Counted from the first letter of the stretch, positions 7,633 to 60,554 are shown. The stretch: DNA of 64,000 bases from an uncultured Bdellovibrionales bacterium (GCA_964346295.1 CAYFUG010000004.1:532-64531); one strand, 5' to 3'. Notes: generated by a model not told the origin, from the letters alone. Translations and numbers: made by a program.

Positions 7633-8957
7633 GAAAAATCGAGAAAACTCTTTTAGAATGGAAAAATAGAGCAGAAAGGAAGCCTTTGATTTTAAGGGGT
7701 GCTCGCCAAGTAGGAAAAACTACTTTATTAGAGAGTTTTGCTCAAGAAAAATTTGCTGATTATCTGAAAATAAATTTTGATAATGGAGAAGATCTGAGGA
7801 ATTTTGAAAAAGTAGATAATTTAAAGGATTTTGAAGAAGTGGTTAAAGCCGTTTATCATAAACAGTTTAACAAAGACACTCTTGTTTTTATTGATGAAAT
7901 TCAAAATCTTCCTAATATAATCAAGCTTTTAAGGTTCTTTTGGGAAGACAGAAGAGAAATTCCAGTGGTAGCGGCGGGGTCGCTTTTGGAGGTAAAAATT
8001 AAACAAGAAGGCTTTTCTCTGCCGGTGGGAAGGGTAGAATTTGCCTATCTTTACCCCTTAAGCTTTTTTGAGTTTCTTGATGCCAGGGGAGAAGACCAAT
8101 TATTAGCCTATATTAAAGAGGCGAATTGGAAAAATCCTCTTGGTCAGACATTGCATCAAAAGTTAGAAGATTTTTTTCTGGAGTATGTTTTGTTGGGGGG
8201 TATGCCGGAGGTAGTAAAGACTTTTGTGAGGGAGGGTAGAGCAGATTTAGCAAGAATTTATCAGTCTTTGCTTCAAACTTATGCAGAAGATTTACATAAA
8301 TATTCCTCTCAATCCGAAGCTAAATACTTAAGATTTGTTTTCGATAATGCTCCTTTTTATGCTGGAAGTCTGGTTCATTATCAAAATTTTGCCCAGTCGG
8401 AATATCGCACTCGGGAGATGCAAGTAGCCTTCGAAGCCCTGCGGGATGCAATGCTCTTGGAAACCATTTTCTCTACCGGCTCTAAGCGCTTACCTTTAAC
8501 AGGTAAAAACAAGCGGCCTAAAAAGCTGCTTTTTCTAGATTCCGGGTTAGCAAGTTATAAAAGAGGTTTTGAAAGGAGTGACTTGAATTGGAACAGCTTA
8601 GATGATGCTTATAAAGGGGGAGTTTTTGAACAGACCATAGGTCAAAACCTCAAGTCTCTTTTTGCTAATGAGCAGAAAAAGCTTTTTTACTGGAGCAAAG
8701 AGAAGGCTCGGGGAGCAGCCGAGGTGGACTTCTGTTTCGAAAGTAGAGGCAAAATTGTGGGGCTGGAAGTTAAGGCGGGAGTGGCTACTCGAGCTCGTTC
8801 TTTGTTTAGTTTTGCTAGCCAAGTGGAAAATAGTGTGATTGTGAGAATTTATCCCGGACCACTTCGAAAAGAGCGAGTAAAACTAGGAGGAGATGAATTT
8901 TCTCTGGTTTCGCTCCCTTTTTACCTAATTGAAAGAGTTTTGGATTTTATAGATTAG
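7623..8957 (+). CDS. AAA+ ATPase with C-terminal DUF4143-like domain
   Basis: Walker A GARQVGKT, Walker B FIDEIQ. 444 aa. Confidence 0.7.
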   Translation: MFRRKIEKTLLEWKNRAERKPLILRGARQVGKTTLLESFAQEKFADYLKINFDNGEDLRNFEKVDNLKDFEEVVKAVYHKQFNKDTLVFIDEIQNLPNIIKLLRFFWEDRREIPVVAAGSLLEVKIKQEGFSLPVGRVEFAYLYPLSFFEFLDARGEDQLLAYIKEANWKNPLGQTLHQKLEDFFLEYVLLGGMPEVVKTFVREGRADLARIYQSLLQTYAEDLHKYSSQSEAKYLRFVFDNAPFYAGSLVHYQNFAQSEYRTREMQVAFEALRDAMLLETIFSTGSKRLPLTGKNKRPKKLLFLDSGLASYKRGFERSDLNWNSLDDAYKGGVFEQTIGQNLKSLFANEQKKLFYWSKEKARGAAEVDFCFESRGKIVGLEVKAGVATRARSLFSFASQVENSVIVRIYPGPLRKERVKLGGDEFSLVSLPFYLIERVLDFID

Positions 8958-8982
8958 AATTCTTTGCTAAAGAGTATATTTC

Positions 8983-9015
8983 AAAAACACCCCAATTATA
9001 ACGGGGTGTTTTTTG
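8983..9015 (+). terminator. rho-independent terminator
   Basis: ACACCCC-aattataac-GGGGTGT stem followed by TTTTTT. Near-identical design to the terminators at 7524 and 12748. Confidence 0.7.
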
Positions 9016-9045
9016 ATAACATTAGAAGTCAGTGGGTAATTATCC

Positions 9046-9074
9046 TTGACATTTTTTTATAAATATGCTATTAT
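9046..9074 (+). promoter_or_regulatory. sigma70-type promoter P1 of GC island 1
   Basis: TTGACA, 17-nt spacer, TGcTATTAT extended -10. Preceded by an AT-rich region. Confidence 0.55.
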
Positions 9075-9127
9075 AGACCGTCCAGCTGAAATGGGGAGCA
9101 AAAACGGGGGCGAGTAGTGACACGATA

Positions 9128-9156
9128 TTGACAAGGTTTCAAAAATATGCTACACT
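9128..9156 (+). promoter_or_regulatory. sigma70-type promoter P2 of GC island 1 (tandem with P1)
   Basis: TTGACA, 17 nt, TGcTACACT. Followed by cGTCAAGCTAAGAAAAGG, which is conserved at the other two islands. Confidence 0.6.
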
Positions 9157-9939
9157 GTATCGTCAAGCTAAGAAAAGGATTCAGGCGAGCACCTTAAAAG
9201 CACTATCATAAATTATTCTTTGAGGAGAGAGTAATCTATAAAAAGAGTTTAACAATTGGACCTTGAGGGCTAAAAAGATTTTTAAATTAGCTCCCTAGAA
9301 AGGTTGTTATTCAAATTAGATTACAAAGCGGATTTATTTCTCTCTCAAAGTTTTTTCATCGTTTTCTCATCGGCAAGAACGATGGGAACCGACAAGAGGT
9401 GGGAATGAATCCGTTTTTTATTGCTTTTGTGGCAAGCCCGATGGAGGAGAGAGTTAAAATCCAAAAGTTTCCGCGGTTACGAAGTCATAACTATTGAATC
9501 GCGAGAAAGTATTGGCCGTAGTTTTTTCTACACCTTCATCGGGCTTCTCGCAAAGTCGAGGAGCGATTCTCAGCGAAGAATCACTGAACCCAATTTAGAG
9601 CGTTTTAACAGCGCTCCTACAAAGAACCTTACAATCAGGAATTTCTAGAATTTATCTAAAAATTCCTAAAACAAATGTTTAAGCTTTGCTTTTGAAAAAC
9701 CTCCCCGCCGCTATTAACGCTTTGGCGGGGTGCTAAGCAAATCTAATTCTCACTCAGCCTTCAAGGCTGGCTCGGATTGATTTGTTGGCAGAGGAGAGAG
9801 GCTCTAGCAGAAAACTAGAGTTCCCGAGAGGAGAGAGCAAGGTCGAATCATGAACATTTCTTTTGTTTTAGCCGGTCTTTTATAAAGACGGGCGGACATC
9901 TGCCGGTAAGAAGTTTCAACGCAAATTTCTTGCTGGTGA

Positions 9940-9977
9940 TGTCTCTCAACGGAGAGACTGTTCTTTGAAAATCTTAG
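9940..9977 (+). promoter_or_regulatory. boxB-like hairpin plus boxA-like antiterminator motif in leader
   Basis: GTCTCTcaacgGAGAGAC hairpin immediately followed by gttctttgaaaatcttag. Resembles rrn boxA (GCTCTTTAACAA / gram-positive TTCTTTGAAAACT). Confidence 0.5.
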
Positions 9978-10228
9978 TTACTGTTTAGTCTATTTTCTCC
10001 TTATTTTTAAGGTGAAAGGTGATTAGCTTCTTTAGGGTGGTTTGCCATTTGGTCATTGCAATTTGCAATTAGCAATTAGAAGGCAAGCCGCTGGAAAGGA
10101 GTTAATCACCAACAACCTTATTTCTAAATCCCGAAAAGGAAGGCAAAAGTAAAGGCCCGGTCCGCTTTGGGCGGATGGTCGGGAGCTACACTGACTTTTG
10201 CTGGAATTGGAGGGAGAAGGAGAGGATC

Positions 10229-11209
10229 ATGACCAATTTCGCGAGCAAATTTGACGGCAAGGGGATCCATGTAATCGCAACCGGTTCGGTGGACGGGGTT
10301 TTGACCACCGCGGCATTTTTGCGGGTGATCGGACTCCATGAGGAGAAGGCAGGGGTGGAGTTTACCCAGGCCTTCACGGTTGACAAGCTGAATCCGGCCC
10401 AGTGGCCGGAGGGGCGGCAGGTCGTTTTCGTGGACCTGGCGGTCAACAATCAGAACCCGGAGATGACGGCGGATTTCGTCCGGCGCATTCGGGAAGCGGG
10501 ACATGAGATCGTTGCCGTATGCGACGAGCACGACGCCGACGCCTGGAAGCGGGTGTTGGGGCAGGAGCCCTTTGAGGCCCTGATCGTAAAGCCCCAAAGT
10601 CAGAAAAAGGGCGAGGCCCAGTCCAGCGGCGCCATTTTATTGGAGGCGCTGGGGGACGAGGCCGATGACCACACTCGCGAGCTGTGCGAAGCCGCGAATG
10701 CCGCCGACCAAATGGATTTTTCCACCCATTTTGGCAGTTACGCCAATCGGGCGGTTAAGTCCGCCATGGGAGACAACTCCCGGCGGGTGCATTTGGCTGG
10801 GCACTTTGCTGCCAACCGGGAGCCGGACGAAGTTATCAGCAGCTGGTGCGCCGAGTACGAGGCGATTATCGCCACCCACGAGGAAGTCCTGGGAAACCGG
10901 GAAGACCTGGGAAGCGGGATCGTCCGGATCGACTGCACTGGCAAGAAGGTGGACATGACCACCTTGATGGGCCAGGTCTACGATCTGCCTGAAACGAAGG
11001 CCTGCCTGGTGATCGGGCCGGTGTATAACAAGGCCAAGGGCGGAATCGAGGTTATGGCCTCCTTCGGAACACGGATTGAAGGCTTCGACATTCAGGCCGC
11101 GATTCAGTCCGAAGGTGTTTCGGCCGGCGGCTTTGCCTCCAAGGCGAATGTCGATCTGGAAAACGAAAAGGCGGCCATTGAGGCCGTCAGAAAAGCGCTT
11201 AACGGCTAG
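10229..11209 (+). CDS. hypothetical protein, GC-rich (about 60% GC), possible degenerate DHH-like phosphoesterase
   Basis: Strong RBS GGAGGGAGAAGGAGAGG then ATG at 10229. Protein-like composition. Weak DHH-like motifs (HVIATGSVDG, VVFVDLA, AVCDEHD). Surrounding antisense and alternate-frame ORFs are treated as GC-driven artefacts. Confidence 0.55.
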   Translation: MTNFASKFDGKGIHVIATGSVDGVLTTAAFLRVIGLHEEKAGVEFTQAFTVDKLNPAQWPEGRQVVFVDLAVNNQNPEMTADFVRRIREAGHEIVAVCDEHDADAWKRVLGQEPFEALIVKPQSQKKGEAQSSGAILLEALGDEADDHTRELCEAANAADQMDFSTHFGSYANRAVKSAMGDNSRRVHLAGHFAANREPDEVISSWCAEYEAIIATHEEVLGNREDLGSGIVRIDCTGKKVDMTTLMGQVYDLPETKACLVIGPVYNKAKGGIEVMASFGTRIEGFDIQAAIQSEGVSAGGFASKANVDLENEKAAIEAVRKALNG

Positions 11210-11685
11210 ACAGTAGCCCCGTTCGTAACTCTCCTCTCTGCTATTTTTATAGTAGAGCAGCGACGAGTGCGTTCGGGGCCTAGCCAAAGATTTTCGTGTG
11301 GTTCAGGGAAAGGAGTTTGTCGGCAACATTCGACAGCTCCTTCCTTCTAAGCTCGGCAACTGAAAGTTTTCAGCTGGTGGTTTTAGAAGGGAATAATGTT
11401 TCCCTAGAGAGTGTATCTCTAAGATATGCTCTAGTTCTTTGACAAGTCCTATTTATACTAGACTCTAAGCTCTGGAGGTTTGATTCTCAAGCTTTTCCCA
11501 TTCCTTAATTTCCTTAAATTCCTAGCTTTACCATCACTGCCTGAGAGCGCAAATACGAATATCCGTTGAAGTAGCGGAAAGTTGTCTAAAATTTGTGCTT
11601 GCAAGTGGTGATGGTAAAAACCCTGGCCGGAATGTTTCCGGTGGGGGTTGGAAGTAATTTTTGAAAAAAGGAAAAAGGAGAAGTC

Positions 11686-12459
11686 ATGGAAAACAATTCC
11701 AAAGAGATGGCGAAGGTTGTGGCTGAGGGATTAGTCGGATTTTTGTCTGGCACTCTTATACTGTTTATTATGGCAAGGATTGCTAGTCCAGGGCCTTCAG
11801 TGTTCCTTGGAATAGCTACAAACCTCCTGTTCTTCATGGGCAGGATTAACTGGATTGGGGGGTGGGAGAAAAAAATACTTTTCATTTTCACTCCAATTAT
11901 CCTCTGGATGGCTCTTATAGGAGCCTGGGGGTTGGGATTATTTCAAATGCCCGACCCAATCAGGCCACCCGTAATCGAAGAGGGGCCGGAGGTGGAGGCC
12001 GTTGAGCTTGATGCGGAAACTTTTATTCCCCGAGTTGAGCGAGAAGAGGGGAAGTTAAGAGTTTCCCTGCATCGACTTAGGCCGTCTACAGAGAAACTCT
12101 TTTTTGCCGTTCAAGAGAACGGCTATTTCTTTCTCGAGTTTAATTTTGGGGGAGGCCGTCTTGCTAAAATAGAGCGCAGAGCCTTCGCCTCCAGCGAAAA
12201 CCCCAGGGAAAGATGGGATTACAGGCTGGAGGGAGGGGCAAGCTCTTTGCTCGAATGGCTTCAGGAAGAGAGAGTTGCTCTTGGAGACCGCGACATGGAA
12301 GATTTCGAAAAATTCATGGAGTGCTTCGGTTTCCAGGGCGAAATCGCCAGGGCGTTTTTCTTGGCCTGCCAGTTTGGAATGGACTGGCCGGAAAAATATT
12401 CACTCGAGACCCAGTTGGCTCGAGAGCTTTTCCGGGAATTAATTTCCGGGGAGCTGTAA
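11686..12459 (+). CDS. hypothetical membrane-anchored protein
   Basis: RBS AAAAGGAGAAG then ATG. Two or three N-terminal TM segments followed by a soluble domain. Intermediate GC. Confidence 0.5.
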   Translation: MENNSKEMAKVVAEGLVGFLSGTLILFIMARIASPGPSVFLGIATNLLFFMGRINWIGGWEKKILFIFTPIILWMALIGAWGLGLFQMPDPIRPPVIEEGPEVEAVELDAETFIPRVEREEGKLRVSLHRLRPSTEKLFFAVQENGYFFLEFNFGGGRLAKIERRAFASSENPRERWDYRLEGGASSLLEWLQEERVALGDRDMEDFEKFMECFGFQGEIARAFFLACQFGMDWPEKYSLETQLARELFRELISGEL

Positions 12460-12858
12460 AAATAGGACTACTAAAGAATAGGATGGGGCGCGCGTTGGAT
12501 CGTCAACCGCGCCTCCCCTATCATCCGGTGAGACCGGATCTGATGAGGTTTTCTGAATAACATTTCAGAGTCAAAGCCGAAATAGGGATTGTTTCTTTGT
12601 AATGTTTTTAGTGGTAAAAGTTAGCCTTTTGTGGGCTGTAGTGTCAAATTCAAAAACCTCTCTCCTCCTCTATTGGTTATAAATACTAGCTATTTAGTCA
12701 CTAGAGTTGAATTTGATGCTCAGCCCAAAGGAGGCTAAGTAAATAAAAAGTAAAAACATCTCTTATCCAGGGGGTGTTTTTTGATGGAAATTTTGATTAA
12801 TTGGAGTTTTTTGCTAAAATTCAAAAAAGATCTGAGAAATAAAAGGATAAAAAAAATT

Positions 12859-28762: not shown

Positions 28763-28877
28763 GTTATTGAAGGTTAGTATTCTGTAAAAAGACTATTTTA
28801 AATGTATTTTTAAAAGATATTTCTACTTTAAATAAGGTAAAATAATAGATTAAGTTAAATTTTTAGTCATTAAATAC

Positions 28878-28906
28878 TTGACAATTTTTTAATAATATGC
28901 TACAAT
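28878..28906 (+). promoter_or_regulatory. sigma70-type promoter of GC island 2
   Basis: TTGACA, 17 nt, TGcTACAAT. Embedded in the TTGACAA...TTGTCAA palindrome. AT-rich UP-like region upstream. Followed by GTCAAGCTAAGAAAAGG. Confidence 0.65.
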
Positions 28907-29108
28907 GCCTTGTCAAGCTAAGAAAAGGGTAAAACTCCGAAGCTTGAAGAACTGAAAGGTTCTAGCCAAATAAGAATAGTTGGCTCTTAGTACATTATAT
29001 CGAGAATAACCACACAACACAAACCACAGGAAAGTTTCTTGCAAGGCTTTTCTAGAGGTGTTTTTTGTGTTGTGGAAACATTCTCTAGCAAGAGCCCTGC
29101 AAAAAACT

Positions 29109-29154
29109 CTCCTATCACGGGGAGTTTTTTGTTCTTTGAAAACTCAGAAATCAG
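29109..29154 (+). promoter_or_regulatory. boxB-like hairpin plus boxA-like antiterminator
   Basis: CTCTCCtatcacGGGGAG hairpin, then gttctttgaaaactcagaaatcag. Confidence 0.55.
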
Positions 29155-29335
29155 TAAAGTGGTTTTCTCCTAGGGCTTTTGTCCTTGGTAGGCAGCTTAG
29201 TGCTTATGAAAGTTTGTAAGCGCTGAGCTGTTTATCAAGCAAGGAAAGCCCGGGCGTCCTAGTCACCGGGAAATTTTACAAAAAAATTATCCGGGCTGTA
29301 CTAGGCAGCCCATTTTTCAGAAAAGGAGAAAGACC

Positions 29336-44768: not shown

Positions 44769-44924
44769 TTTTCAAACCCGCTTTCATCTTAGGGCTTCAG
44801 CGAGGCGCAGCAATTTTTAATATTTTAATGATTGAATTTTAAATAAGCAGAGCAGGAAAAACAAAAACAGCCCTTTTAGGGCTGCTTGAAAGCTTATTTT
44901 TATTCTAAATATAGCAAAGCAATA

Positions 44925-44998
44925 GAAGGGGGAACACTCGTTAAAATGTCTTCTTCTGCTATAATGTCGGTAGACATTTTAACGAGTGTTCCCCCTTC
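44925..44998. repeat. perfect palindrome: 27-bp arms, 20-nt loop containing TATAAT
   Basis: gaagggggaacactcgttaaaatgtct (44925..44951) and its exact reverse complement (44972..44998). Loop tcttctgctataatgtcggt. Confidence 0.9.
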
Positions 44999-45191
44999 TG
45001 TCAATACCCCTGAAAACAAAATTGTAATTGATAGCAGCAGTGAAATTTGTATTAAAAGTAACAACTTTGAAAGTTTCAGCATAAGTGATTTATTAGAAAA
45101 TATTAAGATTCTGATTAAGCATATTTTAGCATATTCAAGGGAAAAATCAAGGGTAAAAATCGATTCTAAGCGAGTAATTTGTCAAGCAAAG

Positions 45192-55868: not shown

Positions 55869-55967
55869 GGAGTTTTAAATTTTGAAAGGATTCGAGTGAA
55901 TTATCAAGATACTTTTTGGAAAAATTGTTTAATTTGATTTTTTTAAACTAAAATACTACAATTCCTA

Positions 55968-56358
55968 GTCGCTTGGTCTAGCTTTGTCTAGATCAAGAGG
56001 AAAGTCTGGACACCAGCCGGCTTTCAATTGGAAGCCAGTTAAAAGGGTAATCGGTAACGCCGATCGGGCTCGATGTGAGTCGAGTCAAGGGATAGCGCCG
56101 CAGAGACAATACTAGTTAATGCTCTGCATTAACGAAAGGTGAAAAGTGTCGAGGGGCTCATTTCTTCGGAATTTGAGCTACTCGACTCGGCTATTGGCGA
56201 CAATAGTTTGTGGCAAGCCCTACCCGGTGCAAGGCCGTGTCTTCTCGTAAAAGAGAGGAAGTGCCGCTAAAGTTCAGCAGTGATGTTGAATGTAGATAAA
56301 TGACTAGGCCAATTTACTTTGGTAGATTGGTACAGAATCCGGCTTATTTTATCTAGTT
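55968..56358 (+). ncRNA. rnpB: RNase P RNA (bacterial type A-like)
   Basis: P4 strands AGAGGAAAGTCTGGAC ... ACAGAATCCGGCTTAT. Also conserved GGTAACGCC, AAAGGTGAAAAG and GGCAAGCCC...GCAAGGCC elements. The ends are approximate. Confidence 0.65.
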
Positions 56359-56658
56359 TTCAGTTAGTAGTTTTCAGTTTTTAGGCCGCATGGAGGCAGC
56401 GCAGGTTATAGAAGCGAGTCCTTTGTAAAAATCTCGAGCGTTGTTTACAGCTTTCTTTATTAGTAGAACACCTCTATTTTTCTTCATGAGGCATTTTGTC
56501 TCCTATATAAGGCAATAAACGCCGTCATTAAAACTGGAGCGGTTTGAAATTGAAATTTAAAAATGTAAACAACGCTAAGGAATCTTACAAGTTATTTCTT
56601 ATCTTGAATTTTCTGGTGTAGTATATGCTGAGCTAAGATAGAAAATAAAATCAAAAGA

Positions 56659-58960: not shown

Positions 58961-59119
58961 AGTTTTAAAGTAAGCTGTTTATTTTGTCATGGGTAATTTT
59001 AGCACATTTATATTTTTTGTAAACTTTTAAGATTACATTTTTTAGGCTTATTTAATTATTTTATCTTTATTGAGTTATTTTTTAAAGTAACATTTTCAAT
59101 TTTAGTGTAGTTTTGATTA

Positions 59120-59148
59120 TTGACAAATATTAATTATTATGCTACAAT
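59120..59148 (+). promoter_or_regulatory. sigma70-type promoter of GC island 3
   Basis: TTGACA, 17 nt, TGcTACAAT. Within the TTGACAA...TGTCAAGCTCAGAAAAGG palindrome. About 150 bp of very AT-rich sequence upstream. Confidence 0.65.
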
Positions 59149-59239
59149 GCTCTGTCAAGCTCAGAAAAGGTTCAGATTCGTGGGTTTTGATTGTTGGAAT
59201 AATTTTGAGATCCGGAAAAAGGCTTAAAAAGCTTTTCTC

Positions 59240-59285
59240 GGGCTCTCAAAGCAGAGCCTAGGTTCTTTGAAAACTTAGAAATCAG
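59240..59285 (+). promoter_or_regulatory. boxB-like hairpin plus boxA-like antiterminator
   Basis: GGGCTCTcaaagcAGAGCC hairpin, then gttctttgaaaacttagaaatcag. Confidence 0.55.
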
Positions 59286-59420
59286 TTACTTCGAGATTCT
59301 TACTTGGAAATTGATAAAGAGGGTAGTTATCAGTCTTTTGAGGCTCTAAATTGCAAAATTTGGGGCTTGAGATGACTGATAACTTATTTTTTATTTTCTT
59401 TTATCAACAAGGAGGATATC

Positions 59421-60554
59421 ATGAAAAAAATTTTTTTATACAGTCCGGGCGCGGATCTGCTCCTTTCCTGGGGCGCTCATTTGATCGAACGGCCTGATCT
59501 GTCAATCGAACGGGACATGCTCGCGGGCGCGATCAGCGAATGGAACCGGAACGAATTGCTGGCGGATTTCCTGGAATCCTGGCCGACCATGCTGGAAGAC
59601 GCCAACAAGGCGCAAGCGTTTTTTGAAGCTCGTCCCGTCATTCCCAATGATTTCACCGATCCTGACTGGAATGAGGCCATTGACGCCCTGCGGGCGTTCG
59701 ACCAGGTCGTTCATCTGTGGGTCGCGGTCGAAGACTTGTTCAGTGACAACGCGCCGGAAGTCATCGACGAACTGGAAGGCCGTTGTTACGACATTTCCGA
59801 ATGGCTTGACAACGCCGAATCGTTTACCAGCCTTCGTCTGGCCCCCTTGAACGAATGGCGGAAAAACCGGATTGAACGCGTCGAAGCGTCTTCCCGGTTC
59901 CTGTTTCCCTGGCTTGCCGATATGGCATGGGCCCCCGCCGACGCGCTGGAACAGCTTGAAGCCCATTGGAACGCGGTTCGGGAAAAAGGCGTTGGCGGCC
60001 TTTCATTTATCGCCGAGCCGGACCGCCTCATTTTCTGGGATTATTTAAAACGCGACATCGGGCTTCAGCAGGAAATGGAAAACCGCCGGCGGCTGGACAT
60101 CGCCATCGCCGACGCCGTGGATCAGAGCCTTCCGCTTCAACTGTTGCGGGTATACGAGAAGCATGTGCAAATATCCGACGTGCCGGAACACGTCCTTCGC
60201 CATGGACTGGCCAACGCGGCCTGCGCCGCCCTGACGGGCGACCGGCATGACGAAGCGTCCCATGAAGACCTGGGCCCCGCCCTGGAAGCGGCCATGGCGC
60301 AAAACGCTCCCATCGAGCGCGTGCTGACGACCGCCCTTTGCGGCCCCTTTCTTACCGACGCCCAGCGGCTTGCCGCGTTCAAGCGGGCCGCGATGAAGCT
60401 GGAAAAAGACGTCTCGGTGGGCGGTTTGGAGGGAATCTTCACCCAGGTGGACCTATGGATGAAAAACGAACTGACGGACGGCGATTTTGCCGACGCGATG
60501 ATGGCCGCCTGGGACCGGATGGCGGAAAACGCCATGAAAGGAGGTGATAACTGA
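59421..60554 (+). CDS. hypothetical protein, GC-rich (377 aa)
   Basis: RBS AAGGAGG, 6 nt, then ATG. About 60% GC. Balanced amino-acid composition. The antisense and alternate-frame ORFs are treated as GC artefacts. Confidence 0.55.
   Translation: MKKIFLYSPGADLLLSWGAHLIERPDLSIERDMLAGAISEWNRNELLADFLESWPTMLEDANKAQAFFEARPVIPNDFTDPDWNEAIDALRAFDQVVHLWVAVEDLFSDNAPEVIDELEGRCYDISEWLDNAESFTSLRLAPLNEWRKNRIERVEASSRFLFPWLADMAWAPADALEQLEAHWNAVREKGVGGLSFIAEPDRLIFWDYLKRDIGLQQEMENRRRLDIAIADAVDQSLPLQLLRVYEKHVQISDVPEHVLRHGLANAACAALTGDRHDEASHEDLGPALEAAMAQNAPIERVLTTALCGPFLTDAQRLAAFKRAAMKLEKDVSVGGLEGIFTQVDLWMKNELTDGDFADAMMAAWDRMAENAMKGGDN

Follow-up and report, generated by a model that had tools for sequence, protein, structure and literature searches.

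The locus raises the question of why the strongest promoters of a 64,000-nt window (the whole stretch of DNA that was analysed) are reserved for three small GC-rich gene islands, and what the long non-coding leader of the first island does. The locus in the window, called WIN, lies on the + strand; L001, L035 and similar names denote related loci. The terminator of the upstream gene sets the 5' boundary of the unit, and the following features open it:

8988..9017, + strand, intrinsic terminator of the upstream DUF4143 ATPase gene, CACCCCaattataaCGGGGTG then a T run
9046..9074, + strand, promoter P1, TTGACA-17-TATTAT with a TG extension, 11 of 12 matches
9128..9156, + strand, promoter P2, TTGACA-17-TACACT with a TG extension, 10 of 12 matches
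9162..9178, + strand, conserved initial transcribed sequence GTCAAGCTAAGAAAAGG, which the three islands have in near-identical form

An earlier note on this DNA had described two consensus promoters about 80 bp apart at 9046 and 9128; both are present, with starts spaced 82 nt. Under a strict score, the 64 kb contain only four near-consensus + strand promoters (9046, 9128, 28878 and 59120), which are the heads of the three GC-rich islands. The P2 promoter and its start sequence are common to the islands at 28878 and 59120 (three matches, none expected). In one of two near-isoenergetic predicted folds, GTCAAGCTAAGAAAAGG pairs with 9406-9425. An Rfam scan at gathering score found no rRNA genes in the window, and a metagenome scan with the 24-nt boxA string gave no matches for the organism's own rRNA operon or for sister islands.

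The stretch from about 9163 to 10228 (about 1,066 nt) is free of credible ORFs, as the earlier note had stated. The longest ORF in the leader has 75 aa (9421-9648, TTG start) and no homologue among 5.8 billion proteins. With TGA taken as sense, no frame stays open for more than 120 codons, and tblastx of the leader against all related loci gave a best E of 0.13. The ORF listing, TGA read-through, tblastx and protein search together rule out a hidden ORF or an alternative code. In the homologous L001 and L035 leaders, indels are not multiples of three.

We then compared the leader with known RNA families. The Infernal/Rfam check proposed in the earlier note returned no family: Rfam 15, which covers riboswitches, 6S, tmRNA, OLE, GOLLD, ROOL, HEARO, raiA and others, had no match in the leader, and the sole gathering-score match in the window was RNase P at 55953-56363. 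At E values up to 10, five weak matches occurred over 8900-11800. Two of them lay within 9040-10228, the rimP leader (E = 0.016) and SpF41 (E = 7.3); they cover the terminator of the upstream gene and reach P1 (9058) at most, and the sub-threshold rimP-leader match aligns exactly to the 8988..9017 hairpin and T run. The remaining three lay in or beyond the coding region. With no Rfam match in the leader itself at E up to 10, identities as 6S, tmRNA, a riboswitch family or a known large RNA were dropped. The long hairpins were also read as integron attC sites, and this was rejected because their terminal bases are in the wrong order (GTT...AAC, not AAC...GTT) and no integrase was found among the ORFs scanned. 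An IS110 bridge RNA, a retron and a group II intron were set aside because the protein has no recombinase or reverse-transcriptase domain.

The leader ends at the gene:

10209..10225, + strand, purine-rich ribosome-binding region GGAGGGAGAAGGAGAGG, read from sequence
10229..11209, + strand, gene for a 326-aa protein with a predicted DHH/DHHA1 fold (DEH variant), GC 0.60, GC3 0.75

The earlier note had given 327 aa, about 62% GC and a strong ribosome-binding site; the site is indeed long and purine-rich, while the counts are 326 codons and a GC of 0.60. The window has a GC of 0.43, and the GC3 of 0.75 compares with 0.32-0.53 for other genes. A GC3 excess, about 0.2 above neighbours, was present in 45 of 50 independent loci, and it tracks the GC3 of the host (r = 0.65). 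Such a consistent excess in one family over dozens of genomes is an unusual evolutionary signal.

Pfam, NCBIfam and PDB sequence profiles gave no credible match for the window protein. Pfam DHH (PF01368) matched 1 of 43 family members (E = 0.065), and the family profile found no DHH protein among PDB sequences. Structural modelling nevertheless predicts a two-domain DHH + DHHA1 fold. By the profile searches that the earlier note had named as its test, its DHH assignment fails; the relationship is visible in the fold alone, and the motif that gives the superfamily its name reads DEH. D99-E100-H101 is invariant in 43 sequences, at DHH motif III. The residues at the presumed motifs are S20-x-D22, D69, D157/D160 and G-G301-F302-x-x-K305-x-N307, a presumptive correspondence assigned by position after beta strands rather than by residue-level superposition. 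With 237 cluster representatives among 1.84 billion, this is a small, isolated DHH/DHHA1-fold family missed by sequence profiles. PHROGs had no match for the island proteins except one weak match of an island 2 protein, and a phage origin was rejected. In island 3, the protein is similar to Csx30 of type III-E CRISPR systems.

Next, we analysed the folding of the leader. The main stems are the following:

9426..9554, + strand, long irregular hairpin with AAGCCCGATG and CATCGGGCTT arms, carrying GAGGAGAGAG motif 2
10008..10120, + strand, long hairpin with 39-nt arms (z = -7.2 for the subwindow starting at 9976), a candidate RNase III or stabiliser stem
10156..10183, + strand, short GC-rich hairpin near the ribosome-binding site, from the predicted fold

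The results showed z-scores of -3.5 to -7.2 for 150-nt subwindows of the leader, against a window-wide mean of -0.59 (sd 1.7); subwindows starting at 9451 and 9526, in the first hairpin, had z = -5.2 and -4.4. For 9935-10245, z was -6.5, and 0 of 100 shuffles folded as well. Across the 64 kb, the most structured subwindows cluster in the leaders and spacers of islands. In 71 loci, the 250 nt before the start codon had a mean z of -4.8, compared with -1.05 for control coding windows, and GC hairpins comparable to that at 10156..10183 precede the start codon in L001, L035, L041 and L055. The elements listed in the earlier note were all found in place: complementary arms at 9426-9447 and 9533-9554 (22 nt, 82% complementary), a CCCGCCG / GGCGGGG pair at about 9705-9731, the complementary segment CAGCCttcaaGGCTG at 9756-9770, and GTCTCTCaacgGAGAGAC at 9941-9958 directly followed by GTTCTTTGAAAATC at 9960-9973. 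Its description of a structured leader was borne out, folding being far stronger than in shuffles.

The covariation check that the note had proposed could be answered only in relatives. Neither blastn nor nhmmer found a homologue of the WIN leader among about 100 loci, a four-way MAFFT alignment of leaders was not trustworthy, and four other assemblies of the same organism carry the leader 100% identical. With neither alignable homologues nor strain variation, covariation evidence can come only from relatives, and no base pair of the WIN leader is backed by it. L050/L055 gave a modest excess of compensatory changes (fraction 0.19-0.23, null 0.08), with the overall fraction of pairs kept not above null; L001/L035 gave no excess.

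The 5' part of the leader carries repeated purine-rich motifs and a terminator-like hairpin:

9222..9231, + strand, GAGGAGAGAG motif 1, proposed 5' strand of an antiterminator, from duplex energy
9325..9417, + strand, terminator-like long hairpin (9325-9411) and TTTTTT (9412-9417), predicted to fold at -37 kcal/mol
9444-9453, + strand, GAGGAGAGAG motif 2, inside the hairpin 9426..9554
9791-9800 and 9828-9837, + strand, GAGGAGAGAG motifs 3 and 4, flanking a small hairpin GCTCTAG / CTAGAGT

Four of the eight copies of GGAGAGAG in the window lie in the island 1 leader, within 620 nt, and the GAGGAGAGAG motif is absent from the island 2 and island 3 leaders. Across loci, related motifs number 48 on the sense strand and 3 on the antisense strand, and the motif is kept between the otherwise diverged leaders of L001/L035 and of L050/L055. 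Three of the four GAGGAGAGAG copies have no start codon (ATG, GTG, TTG) within 12 nt downstream; an 11-codon ORF begins 12 nt past the fourth.

With its 87 nt, the hairpin is atypical among intrinsic terminators, and a simple terminator scan made no call; the relatives have compact hairpins and U runs. It is the predicted minimum-energy form for 9160-9430, also with motif 1 blocked. The best duplex of motif 1 with its 5' arm has -21.0 kcal/mol and beats all 378 background windows. A hairpin and U run follow motif 1 in six leaders (WIN, L001, L035, L040, L050 and L055), and the duplex ranks at 0.023 or below against background in five of the six; in these segments the flanks are lineage-specific, as read from the paired segments. 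In folding models, mutually exclusive pairing of motif 1 and the terminator-like hairpin thus recurs in relatives. WIN has two alternative predicted folds, at -69.5 and -69.7 kcal/mol, 0.2 kcal/mol apart, a bistability of the 5' domain seen in WIN only and varying with the chosen 3' end. Since the minimum-energy fold of the relatives is the terminator form, a switch would have to be kinetic.

Further downstream, the leader carries a boxB-boxA module, and a related tract follows the gene:

9941..9958, + strand, boxB-like hairpin GTCTCTC-aacg-GAGAGAC, 7 bp, ending 1 nt before boxA
9960..9973, + strand, boxA-like element GTTCTTTGAAAATC, one mismatch to GTTCTTTGAAAACT
9993..10002, + strand, pyrimidine tract UUUUCUCCUU, a predicted pairing partner of the Shine-Dalgarno (SD) region
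11228..11241, + strand, pyrimidine tract ACTCTCCTCTCTGC just past the stop codon, a complement of motifs 3 and 4

The boxB-like hairpin and boxA-like motif reported in the earlier note form a textbook boxB/boxA arrangement of a hairpin and GTTCTTTGAAAA. The minimum-energy fold pairs 2 of the 14 boxA bases, and the centroid pairs the first base only. Further copies of the motif stand at 29131, 32105 and 59262, and a weaker one at 11434. With 0-1 mismatch, the window's four best matches all fall on the sense strand, each of them in an island leader or spacer. Across loci there were about 40 sense-strand matches against 2 antisense, and in a dozen loci boxA lies 140-490 nt ahead of the DHH-like start codon. 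By analogy, we infer that the module would act as an rrn-type Nus antitermination signal. BoxA is known to protect long untranslated RNAs (PMC7665894); here it lies about 800 nt downstream of the transcription start, so the upstream part of the leader would be beyond its protection.

About 27-49 nt after boxA, an SD-complementary sequence was found in all five modules of the window. Its complementarity rank against background was 0.043 or below in four of them and 0.14 in the island 1 module. Predicted masking of the ribosome-binding site by the post-boxA tract applies to the five modules of this window and fails in L001, L035, L041 and L055. A function of the ACTCTCCTCTCTGC tract is suggested by its sequence, and the 9-mers CTCTCCTCT and TCTCCTCTC have complements in the leader at -402 and -439. 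A general leader-trailer helix around the gene was rejected, 9-mer complementarity being unenriched (9.4 vs 7.9 hits per kb). Leader-trailer matches of 10-14 nt are present in WIN, L041 and L077.

About 90 related loci, mostly from the Candidate Phyla Radiation (CPR), share this layout. Their promoters are strong and often tandem, spaced 87-128 nt and placed 800-1,460 nt upstream of the gene in L040, L050, L055, L062, L071 and L077. Their leaders are ORF-free over 0.7-1.4 kb and carry GAGGAGAGAG motifs on the sense strand, the first of which can pair with the 5' arm of a terminator-like hairpin that lies about 150-260 nt into the leader. A boxB hairpin with a GTTCTTTGAAAA boxA is placed 140-490 nt upstream of the start. 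The module order is kept in at least six distant genomes, and the leader architecture across proteins only 50-67% identical. Among homologues, the leader measures between about 130 nt and over 2 kb, so the gene does not require the long 5' part. Spacers of some relatives carry hammerhead type III ribozymes on the sense strand. Gene neighbourhoods vary between genomes, and in L001 an IS200-type Y1 transposase adjoins the gene.

The explanation we favour, to which we give about even chances, is that island 1 heads a strongly expressed operon of a mainly-CPR type and that its 1,066 untranslated nucleotides are a modular cis-acting leader and no mere spacer. Between the two options of the earlier note, a large non-coding RNA or a cis-regulatory leader, the latter is favoured, the same modular plan preceding the gene family in many genomes. 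Judged from sequence, transcription start, read-through, processing and Nus dependence would proceed as follows. Polymerase would initiate at P1 or P2. Within the first 260 nt, pairing of motif 1 with the CU-rich 5' arm of the terminator-like hairpin would allow read-through; a trans factor on motif 1 would let the hairpin and U run form and stop transcription, the candidates being a 30S subunit on the SD-like sequence and a protein, perhaps the DHH-like product itself. Polymerases past the terminator would meet boxB-boxA, load NusB/NusE-type factors and resist termination across the remaining untranslated RNA and the multi-gene unit. The long hairpins might be cut or serve as 5' stabilisers, the SD-like GAGGAGAGAG motifs may work like STAB-SD elements, and the post-boxA CU tract could keep the ribosome-binding site masked pending processing or refolding of the RNA. 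The mRNA might gain stability or translation efficiency from its GC-rich synonymous sites and from a coding region that folds more than average.

A bolder form of this cis-acting reading, which we offer tentatively and consider possible though rather doubtful, is a new mainly-CPR class of cis-RNA that joins a GAGGAGAGAG attenuator to an rRNA-style Nus antitermination/processing cassette and sets the level of a DEH branch of the DHH superfamily that had gone unrecognised. Within it, that protein would feed back on its own purine-rich leader, or free 30S subunits would be sensed, and the family-wide synonymous GC excess would reflect selection on the mRNA (stability or structure). If true, this would be mRNA-level selection in organisms thought to be weakly selected in this way, and rRNA-type antitermination signals would be put to use on messenger RNAs. 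CPR bacteria (Patescibacteria) cannot be grown alone, and to our knowledge almost nothing is known of their control of gene expression; the locus offers a concrete, testable picture of it. CPR bacteria are believed to rely on scavenged nucleotides, which makes a very highly expressed, elaborately controlled nuclease- or phosphodiesterase-like enzyme a plausible key function.

Other readings draw on the same evidence. The first 250-800 nt could form an independent non-coding RNA with a role of its own, such as titration of a GAGGAGAGAG-binding protein, either as a small RNA ending at the 9412-9417 T run or as a large RNA ending before boxA, with the DHH-like gene expressed only through read-through or processing. 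The strong tandem promoters, a terminator-like hairpin and U run that six leaders keep between +150 and +260, a predicted fold that pairs the 5' end with the 3' end into a closed rod-like domain, and repeated single-stranded motifs among hairpins, which recall protein-sponge RNAs, all agree with it. So do L035, where other sequence and another gene part the long 5' element from the DHH-like gene, and L057, where ORFs of at least 90 codons lie between the motif-bearing 5' region and that gene. However, no Rfam family matches, including 6S, tmRNA and known large RNAs, the sequence between motifs is not conserved, and the element heads only operons containing the DHH-like family and is absent from the two sister islands, which fits gene-specific cis control. 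We regard this reading, which can coexist with a cis-acting leader, as unlikely. A small-molecule riboswitch is improbable. Here motif 1 and the CU arm would form the P1 helix of an aptamer at 9219-9350, and a ligand, for instance a nucleotide or dinucleotide that the DHH-like enzyme uses or makes, would pick antiterminator or terminator. The layout is of the ON type, with the 3' strand of the closing helix overlapping the 5' arm of the terminator, and DHH/DHHA1 enzymes act on nanoRNAs, pAp, pGpG and c-di-AMP, to go by how the top structural matches are described. In known aptamers, the nucleotides that contact the ligand are conserved, whereas the sequence inside the helix shows no conservation from one lineage to the next; what is conserved is a simple purine run with three more copies downstream, and no Rfam riboswitch matches.

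That the region is an ordinary long intergenic one, with real promoters and incidental hairpins and motifs, we consider quite improbable. The WIN leader has no sequence homologue, covariation is weak, and z-scores alone are weak evidence; yet the clustering of the most structured parts of the 64 kb in island leaders and spacers, the strand bias of the GAGGAGAGAG-type motif and boxA, and the module order conserved in at least six distant genomes all speak against it. Least probable, and very unlikely in our view, is a recent foreign island, in which a GC-rich gene was horizontally acquired and the upstream region is junk or a remnant of decayed cargo. The high GC and GC3 of the gene (0.60 vs 0.43; 0.75 vs 0.32-0.53), the differing neighbourhoods, the Y1 transposase of L001 and the Csx30-like protein of island 3 would suit such an origin. 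But the GC3 excess in 45 of 50 loci and its correlation with the host (r = 0.65) indicate that the gene has long been resident under selection and was not transferred recently. Three islands share the promoter, start sequence and boxA, which are AT-rich and of a native style; the leader exceeds the rest of the window in structure and has enriched strand-specific motifs, and its architecture is conserved across proteins of 50-67% identity.

We finally compared the locus with the closest known systems. Like the DHH/DHHA1 phosphoesterases (NrnA, PggH, GdpP, RecJ and archaeal RecJ-Cdc45), the protein in its model appears to have acidic residues at the ends of the beta strands that carry motifs II, III and IV. 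It differs in motif III (invariant D-E-H instead of D-H-H) and, by the presumed correspondence, in motif I (S-x-D instead of D-x-D) and in the replacement of the DHHA1 motif GGGH by G-G-F-x-x-K-x-N.

Ribosomal RNA operon leaders combine tandem promoters with boxB-boxA-boxC and antitermination by Nus factors. Island 1 resembles them in its tandem near-consensus promoters (P1/P2), a hairpin directly followed by a boxA equal in sequence to that of rRNA spacers, the repetition of boxA in intergenic spacers (11434 and 32105) and long processing-type stems after boxA. Its CU tract past the stop codon could also pair with the leader, and a leader-trailer helix is described for rRNA operons (PMC10250234). 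Unlike those operons, island 1 drives protein-coding genes, a large extra domain puts its boxA about 800 nt from the start, and its long stem closes ahead of the gene, not around it.

The 558-nt 5' UTR of cry3A in Bacillus thuringiensis has an SD-like element, STAB-SD, at which translation is not initiated; the 30S subunit bound there keeps RNase J1 from degrading the RNA 5' to 3' (PMC4113751, PMC2358910). GAGGAGAGAG contains AGGAG and lies in a long 5' UTR, and by analogy with this element and other polypurine stabilisers, such as that of mycobacterial katG, the motifs may be 5' stabilisers. Unlike STAB-SD, island 1 has four copies over 600 nt rather than one near a processed 5' end, its conserved motif GAGGAGAGAGU is longer than the SD core, and its first copy also takes part in the predicted alternative pairing with the terminator-like hairpin.

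In attenuation by TRAP (trp leader) and PyrR (pyr leaders), the antiterminator strand is purine-rich and single-stranded, and its binding lets a downstream terminator form. Island 1 differs in having neither the spaced GAG/UAG triplets of TRAP nor the PyrR binding loop, and the WIN terminator stem is unusually long. It is like both systems in that its purine-rich motif 1 is one strand of the proposed antiterminator.

The window is a bacterial chromosome segment of low GC content (0.43) that carries gyrA, secDF, gcpE, mnmA and the RNase P RNA. The same contig was found in microbial-mat (PRJEB25599) and other metagenome assemblies (JGI 3300012002). GC rises far above the rest of the window in three short stretches, islands 1 to 3 (about 10.2-11.2 kb, 29.3-32.5 kb and 59.4-60.5 kb). 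The earlier note had placed two promoters at 9046 (P1) and 9128 (P2), and both proved near-consensus, with TG extensions and a spacing of 82 nt. A strict promoter score returned four + strand sites in 64 kb, namely P1, P2 and the heads of islands 2 and 3. P2 and the latter two also have their first transcribed bases in common, TATGCTACA(A/C)TG-N4-GTCAAGCT(A/C)AGAAAAGG, and the promoter/start pattern of the three islands matched three times in the window against 0 expected. Because the upstream gene has its own terminator, a new transcription unit begins after it. The features of island 1 are as follows.

8988-9017, the upstream gene's own terminator
9046 and 9128, + strand, tandem promoters P1 and P2
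9222, 9444, 9791 and 9828, four leader copies of the purine-rich GAGGAGAGAG motif (the copy at 9222 is motif 1)
9325-9417, terminator-like hairpin
10229-11209, + strand, DHH-like gene
12516-12587, sense strand, candidate type III hammerhead from a pattern search, in the gap between genes 2 and 3 of the island 1 operon

Islands 2 and 3 (28878-29335; 59120-59420) have the same promoter, first 17 transcribed bases and hairpin-plus-boxA as island 1; their leaders are short (about 420 and 265 nt), and every island 2 gene has its own structured spacer upstream. The island promoters (9127-9170, 28877-28920 and 59119-59162) have an inverted repeat, TTGACAA ... TTGTCAA, made up of the -35 box and the start region. 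Among the related loci, which carry homologues of the DHH-like gene, L001 and L004 (and L014, the same contig) have a TrmB-family regulator gene, assigned by precomputed Pfam match, which lies upstream of the promoter and is read from the opposite strand; in L041, a divergent 265-aa upstream ORF resembles such a regulator by eye only.

The leader of island 1 starts at about 9163 and covers 1,066 nt, up to the gene's ATG (10229); it has no credible ORF, as had been claimed from the sequence. Its longest ORF (75 aa, TTG start) had no relative among 5.8 billion proteins, reading TGA as sense still gave no credible ORF, and tblastx of the leader against about 100 related loci gave nothing better than E = 0.13. 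The complementary segments reported earlier were all present, and the leader is structured well beyond chance. We scanned the whole 64 kb in 150-nt windows (mean z = -0.59, sd 1.7). The results showed z = -3.5, -5.2, -4.4, -5.2, -4.3 and -7.2 for the leader, and the strongest-folding windows lay largely in leaders and spacers of the three islands. Segments 9935-10245 and 9160-9430 gave z = -6.5 and -3.1, respectively. Rfam had no match in the leader at the gathering score, and at E up to 10 the interval 9040-10228 was touched only by weak matches on the upstream gene's terminator, reaching P1 at most. No sequence homologue of this leader was detected in the related loci. The most structured spot of the window (44921-45001, z = -12.7) is a perfect 27-bp inverted repeat, GAAGGGGGAACACTCGTTAAAATGTCT / AGACATTTTAACGAGTGTTCCCCCTTC, around a loop with TGCTATAAT; beside it a promoter-like site on the - strand starts at 45004.

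In the relatives, the architecture of the leader is conserved while its sequence is not. Most loci whose upstream sequence was long enough had strong TGnTATAAT promoters about 130 to 2,500 nt ahead of the gene, and tandem promoters 87-128 nt apart were found in L040, L050, L055, L062, L071 and L077. ORF-free leaders of 0.7-1.4 kb occurred in L001, L040, L041, L055, L077 and L096, among others, and the 250 nt upstream of the start codon folded with mean z = -4.8 over 71 loci (77% below -3). L055 (protein identity 52%) matches island 1 module for module, with two promoters, AGGAGAGAG, more motif copies, a hairpin plus AGTTCTTTACA, a long hairpin, GC hairpins and a ribosome-binding site; AGGAGAGAG stands at +59 from the inferred start in both. 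The L050 and L055 leaders are homologous (nhmmer E = 1e-55), as are those of L001 and L035. Both pairs retained the purine motifs and the terminator-like hairpin, with the intervening hairpins replaced, and their indels had lengths that are not multiples of three.

Island 2 has a leader module of about 145 nt that is also found in the leader of the DHH-like gene in another genome (window 29027-29175, L041 3157-3299, L072 1303-1431; nhmmer E = 1e-8 to 1e-10). It comprises an outer stem whose sequences differ with complementarity kept, a conserved hairpin GGAAAGTTTCTTGCAAGGCTTTTC, an A/T-rich hairpin and boxA. The palindromic core CTTGCAAG also occurs at 11598 and within the terminator-like hairpins of L001 and L035. 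Dozens of independent assemblies end within the leader, 70-480 nt upstream of the gene (e.g. L034, L037-L039, L043, L048, L049, L059, L068 and L069), which suggests repeated modules or strain-level hypervariability. About 0.8 kb before its tandem promoters, L050 has a LOOT RNA (RF03000, 82 bits) on the - strand, at 1713-1832.

In six leaders (island 1, L001, L035, L040, L050 and L055) the first and second motifs are separated by a hairpin plus U run, located 150-260 nt from the start; the 5' arm of this hairpin is complementary to the first motif and the bases flanking it. We regard this arrangement in the first 260 nt as a candidate attenuator. We ranked the energy of this duplex against background windows.

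Duplex between the first motif and the 5' arm of the U-run hairpin (leader, energy, rank)
Island 1, -21.0 kcal/mol, better than all 378 background windows
L001, -19.5 kcal/mol, better than all 384 background windows
L035, -17.5 kcal/mol, rank 0.018
L040, -18.3 kcal/mol, rank 0.023
L050, -13.7 kcal/mol, rank 0.022
L055, -11.4 kcal/mol, rank 0.156, not significant with the segment chosen

Read from the paired segments, the duplex flanks vary by lineage with complementarity kept (CUUUGAG/CUCAAAG in island 1, GCAAG/CUUGC in L001 and L035, GUAAGAGGA/UCCUCUUAC in L050). In island 1 the two predicted folds are mutually exclusive and almost isoenergetic, the antiterminator form at -69.5 kcal/mol (9160-9428) and the terminator form at -69.7 (9160-9430), and blocking motif 1 gave the terminator form. 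The terminator-like hairpin of island 1 is long, and a simple terminator scan did not call it; in the relatives the terminator is the minimum-energy fold. A crude covariation test found compensatory changes of 0.19-0.23 vs 0.08 for L050/L055 (p ~0.003) and no excess for L001/L035.

The motif itself is concentrated in the leader. GGAGAGAG occurred eight times on both strands of the window against about 4 expected, with four occurrences inside 620 nt of leader against about 0.04 expected. Across loci, the 1.5 kb ahead of the gene had 48 related motifs on the sense strand vs 3 on the antisense strand. The GAGGAGAGAG motif was absent from the leaders of islands 2 and 3, indicating that it goes with the island 1 operon type and not with the promoter cassette. 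Sense-strand pyrimidine tracts at 12657-12670 and 11228-11241 are complementary to the leader motifs; the CCTCTCTCCTCCTC tract belongs to the apical portion of a long hairpin and the ACTCTCCTCTCTGC tract is 19 nt downstream of the stop codon. Spacers of L013, L015, L022, L043, L054 and L087 contain similar ATCTCTCTCCTC tracts.

Further downstream the leader has an rRNA-style module, the boxB hairpin GTCTCTC-aacg-GAGAGAC followed after one base by boxA GTTCTTTGAAAATC. The top four boxA sites of the window, with 0-1 mismatch (9960, 29131, 32105 and 59262), all fall in leaders or spacers of the islands, on the + strand, and in islands 2 and 3 the match lengthens to the 24-mer GTTCTTT(G/A)AAAACT(C/T)AGAAATCAG. 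Across loci (at most 1 mismatch) there were about 40 sense vs 2 antisense boxA elements, lying 140-490 nt upstream of the start codon in a dozen loci. In island 1, a CU tract 3' of boxA (9993-10002) is predicted to pair with the ribosome-binding region, closing a domain with a 113-nt hairpin and a GC hairpin. The region after boxA is complementary to the Shine-Dalgarno (SD) region in all five boxA-to-start modules of the window (rank at most 0.043 vs background in four, 0.14 in that of island 1); this was not seen in the relatives tested.

A structural pattern search of the loci and the window found eleven type III hammerheads, all on the sense strand in spacers of DHH-like gene operons and several directly 5' of a boxA-like element. 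Five of them also scored with the Rfam model (E = 4e-8 to 3e-6), with one passing the gathering score. The candidate at 12516-12587 has all core bases (CUGAUGA, GAAA) and a UC cleavage site; its stem III is 6 bp and its stem II 32 nt long, and boxA-like GTTTCTTTGTAA follows at 12592. The candidate drew no Rfam match at E up to 5, and relatives have model-supported hammerheads at equivalent places. From these sense-strand spacer hammerheads, the operons appear to be processed polycistrons.

The 326-aa protein of the DHH-like gene had 114 close homologues, none named, and no match in Pfam, NCBIfam or PHROG. Most homologues of the gene belong to genomes of the Candidate Phyla Radiation (CPR; Uhrbacteria, Portnoybacteria, Doudnabacteria, Saccharimonadia, Paceibacterota and Peribacteria). 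A profile search of 1.84 billion cluster representatives recovered 237 members only and no canonical DHH protein, and Pfam DHH touched one of 43 members (E = 0.065). The AlphaFold model (pLDDT 96, pTM 0.91) had only DHH/DHHA1 enzymes as top structural matches (Foldseek: PAP phosphatase, PggH, GdpP, RecJ and NrnA, E ~1e-10 to 1e-8). Residues invariant or nearly so in the family (S20-x-D22, D69, D99-E100-H101, D157/D160, and G-G-F-x-x-K-x-N in place of GGGH) fall, judged by their position in the model, where the DHH motifs would lie; they follow beta strands 1, 3 and 4 or are part of a helix, and they are non-canonical. The DHH guess of the earlier note is therefore right at the level of fold and fails by Pfam and profiles; judged by sequence criteria, the protein is a separate DEH branch.

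In the window, GC3 was 0.59-0.75 in island genes vs 0.32-0.53 in all other genes. Over 50 non-redundant loci the gene averaged 0.71 vs 0.50 for its neighbours, exceeding the neighbour mean in 45 and correlating with it at r = 0.65; the exceptions were mostly the most distant homologues (at most 38% identity), including two chlamydial records (L029 and L031). The coding region also folded strongly (mean z = -3.1 vs -1.05 in control coding regions). GC richness is a family trait and not a local accident, and the pattern across loci argues for long residence with selection, or gene-specific bias, over recent transfer of the gene.

The sole GC-rich gene of island 3 (59421-60554; 377 aa, GC3 0.69) encodes a protein matching NCBIfam NF041234, type III-E CRISPR-associated Csx30 (E = 4.4e-45, 154.5 bits vs a cut-off of 125), over profile positions 2-347 of 560 only; the large ORFs scanned in the window included no further type III-E component. 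In three loci (L009 3402-3789, L053 2882-3270 and L067 2909-3288) the DHH-like gene has a leader of only about 130 nt, and a divergent RNase P RNA gene is its immediate upstream neighbour; the RNase P RNA of the window (55953-56363) is 45 kb away.

The simplest account, to which we give an even chance, is a modular cis-acting leader for very high but controlled expression. Strong tandem promoters would drive the leader, an early terminator/antiterminator decision would be keyed to the purine motif, polymerases passing it would come under Nus-type antitermination, and hairpins and SD-like motifs would set processing, stability and ribosome access. A stand-alone RNA, co-transcribed with the gene, is unlikely and would be compatible with such a cis-acting leader. 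A small-molecule riboswitch is distinctly improbable. Recent foreign origin, which the GC3 pattern speaks against, deserves very little credence, and so does incidental structure.

The literature searches returned no description of this combination of leader ingredients, of a conserved GAGGAGAGAG leader associated with a DEH branch of the DHH superfamily, or of a family-wide GC3 excess in CPR bacteria. Taken singly, boxA antitermination, attenuation, SD-like stabilisers, hammerheads and the DHH fold are all of known types. Nus complexes that depend on boxA shield long untranslated RNAs, rRNA and CRISPR arrays, from Rho (PMC7665894). The GAGGAGAGAG motif contains the Shine-Dalgarno core AGGAG, and three of its four copies have no start codon after them. 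Such SD-like copies in a long leader resemble cry3A, in whose 558-nt leader a 30S subunit bound to STAB-SD stops RNase J1 (PMC4113751), and the motif also recalls the polypurine stabilisers described elsewhere (PMC2358910).
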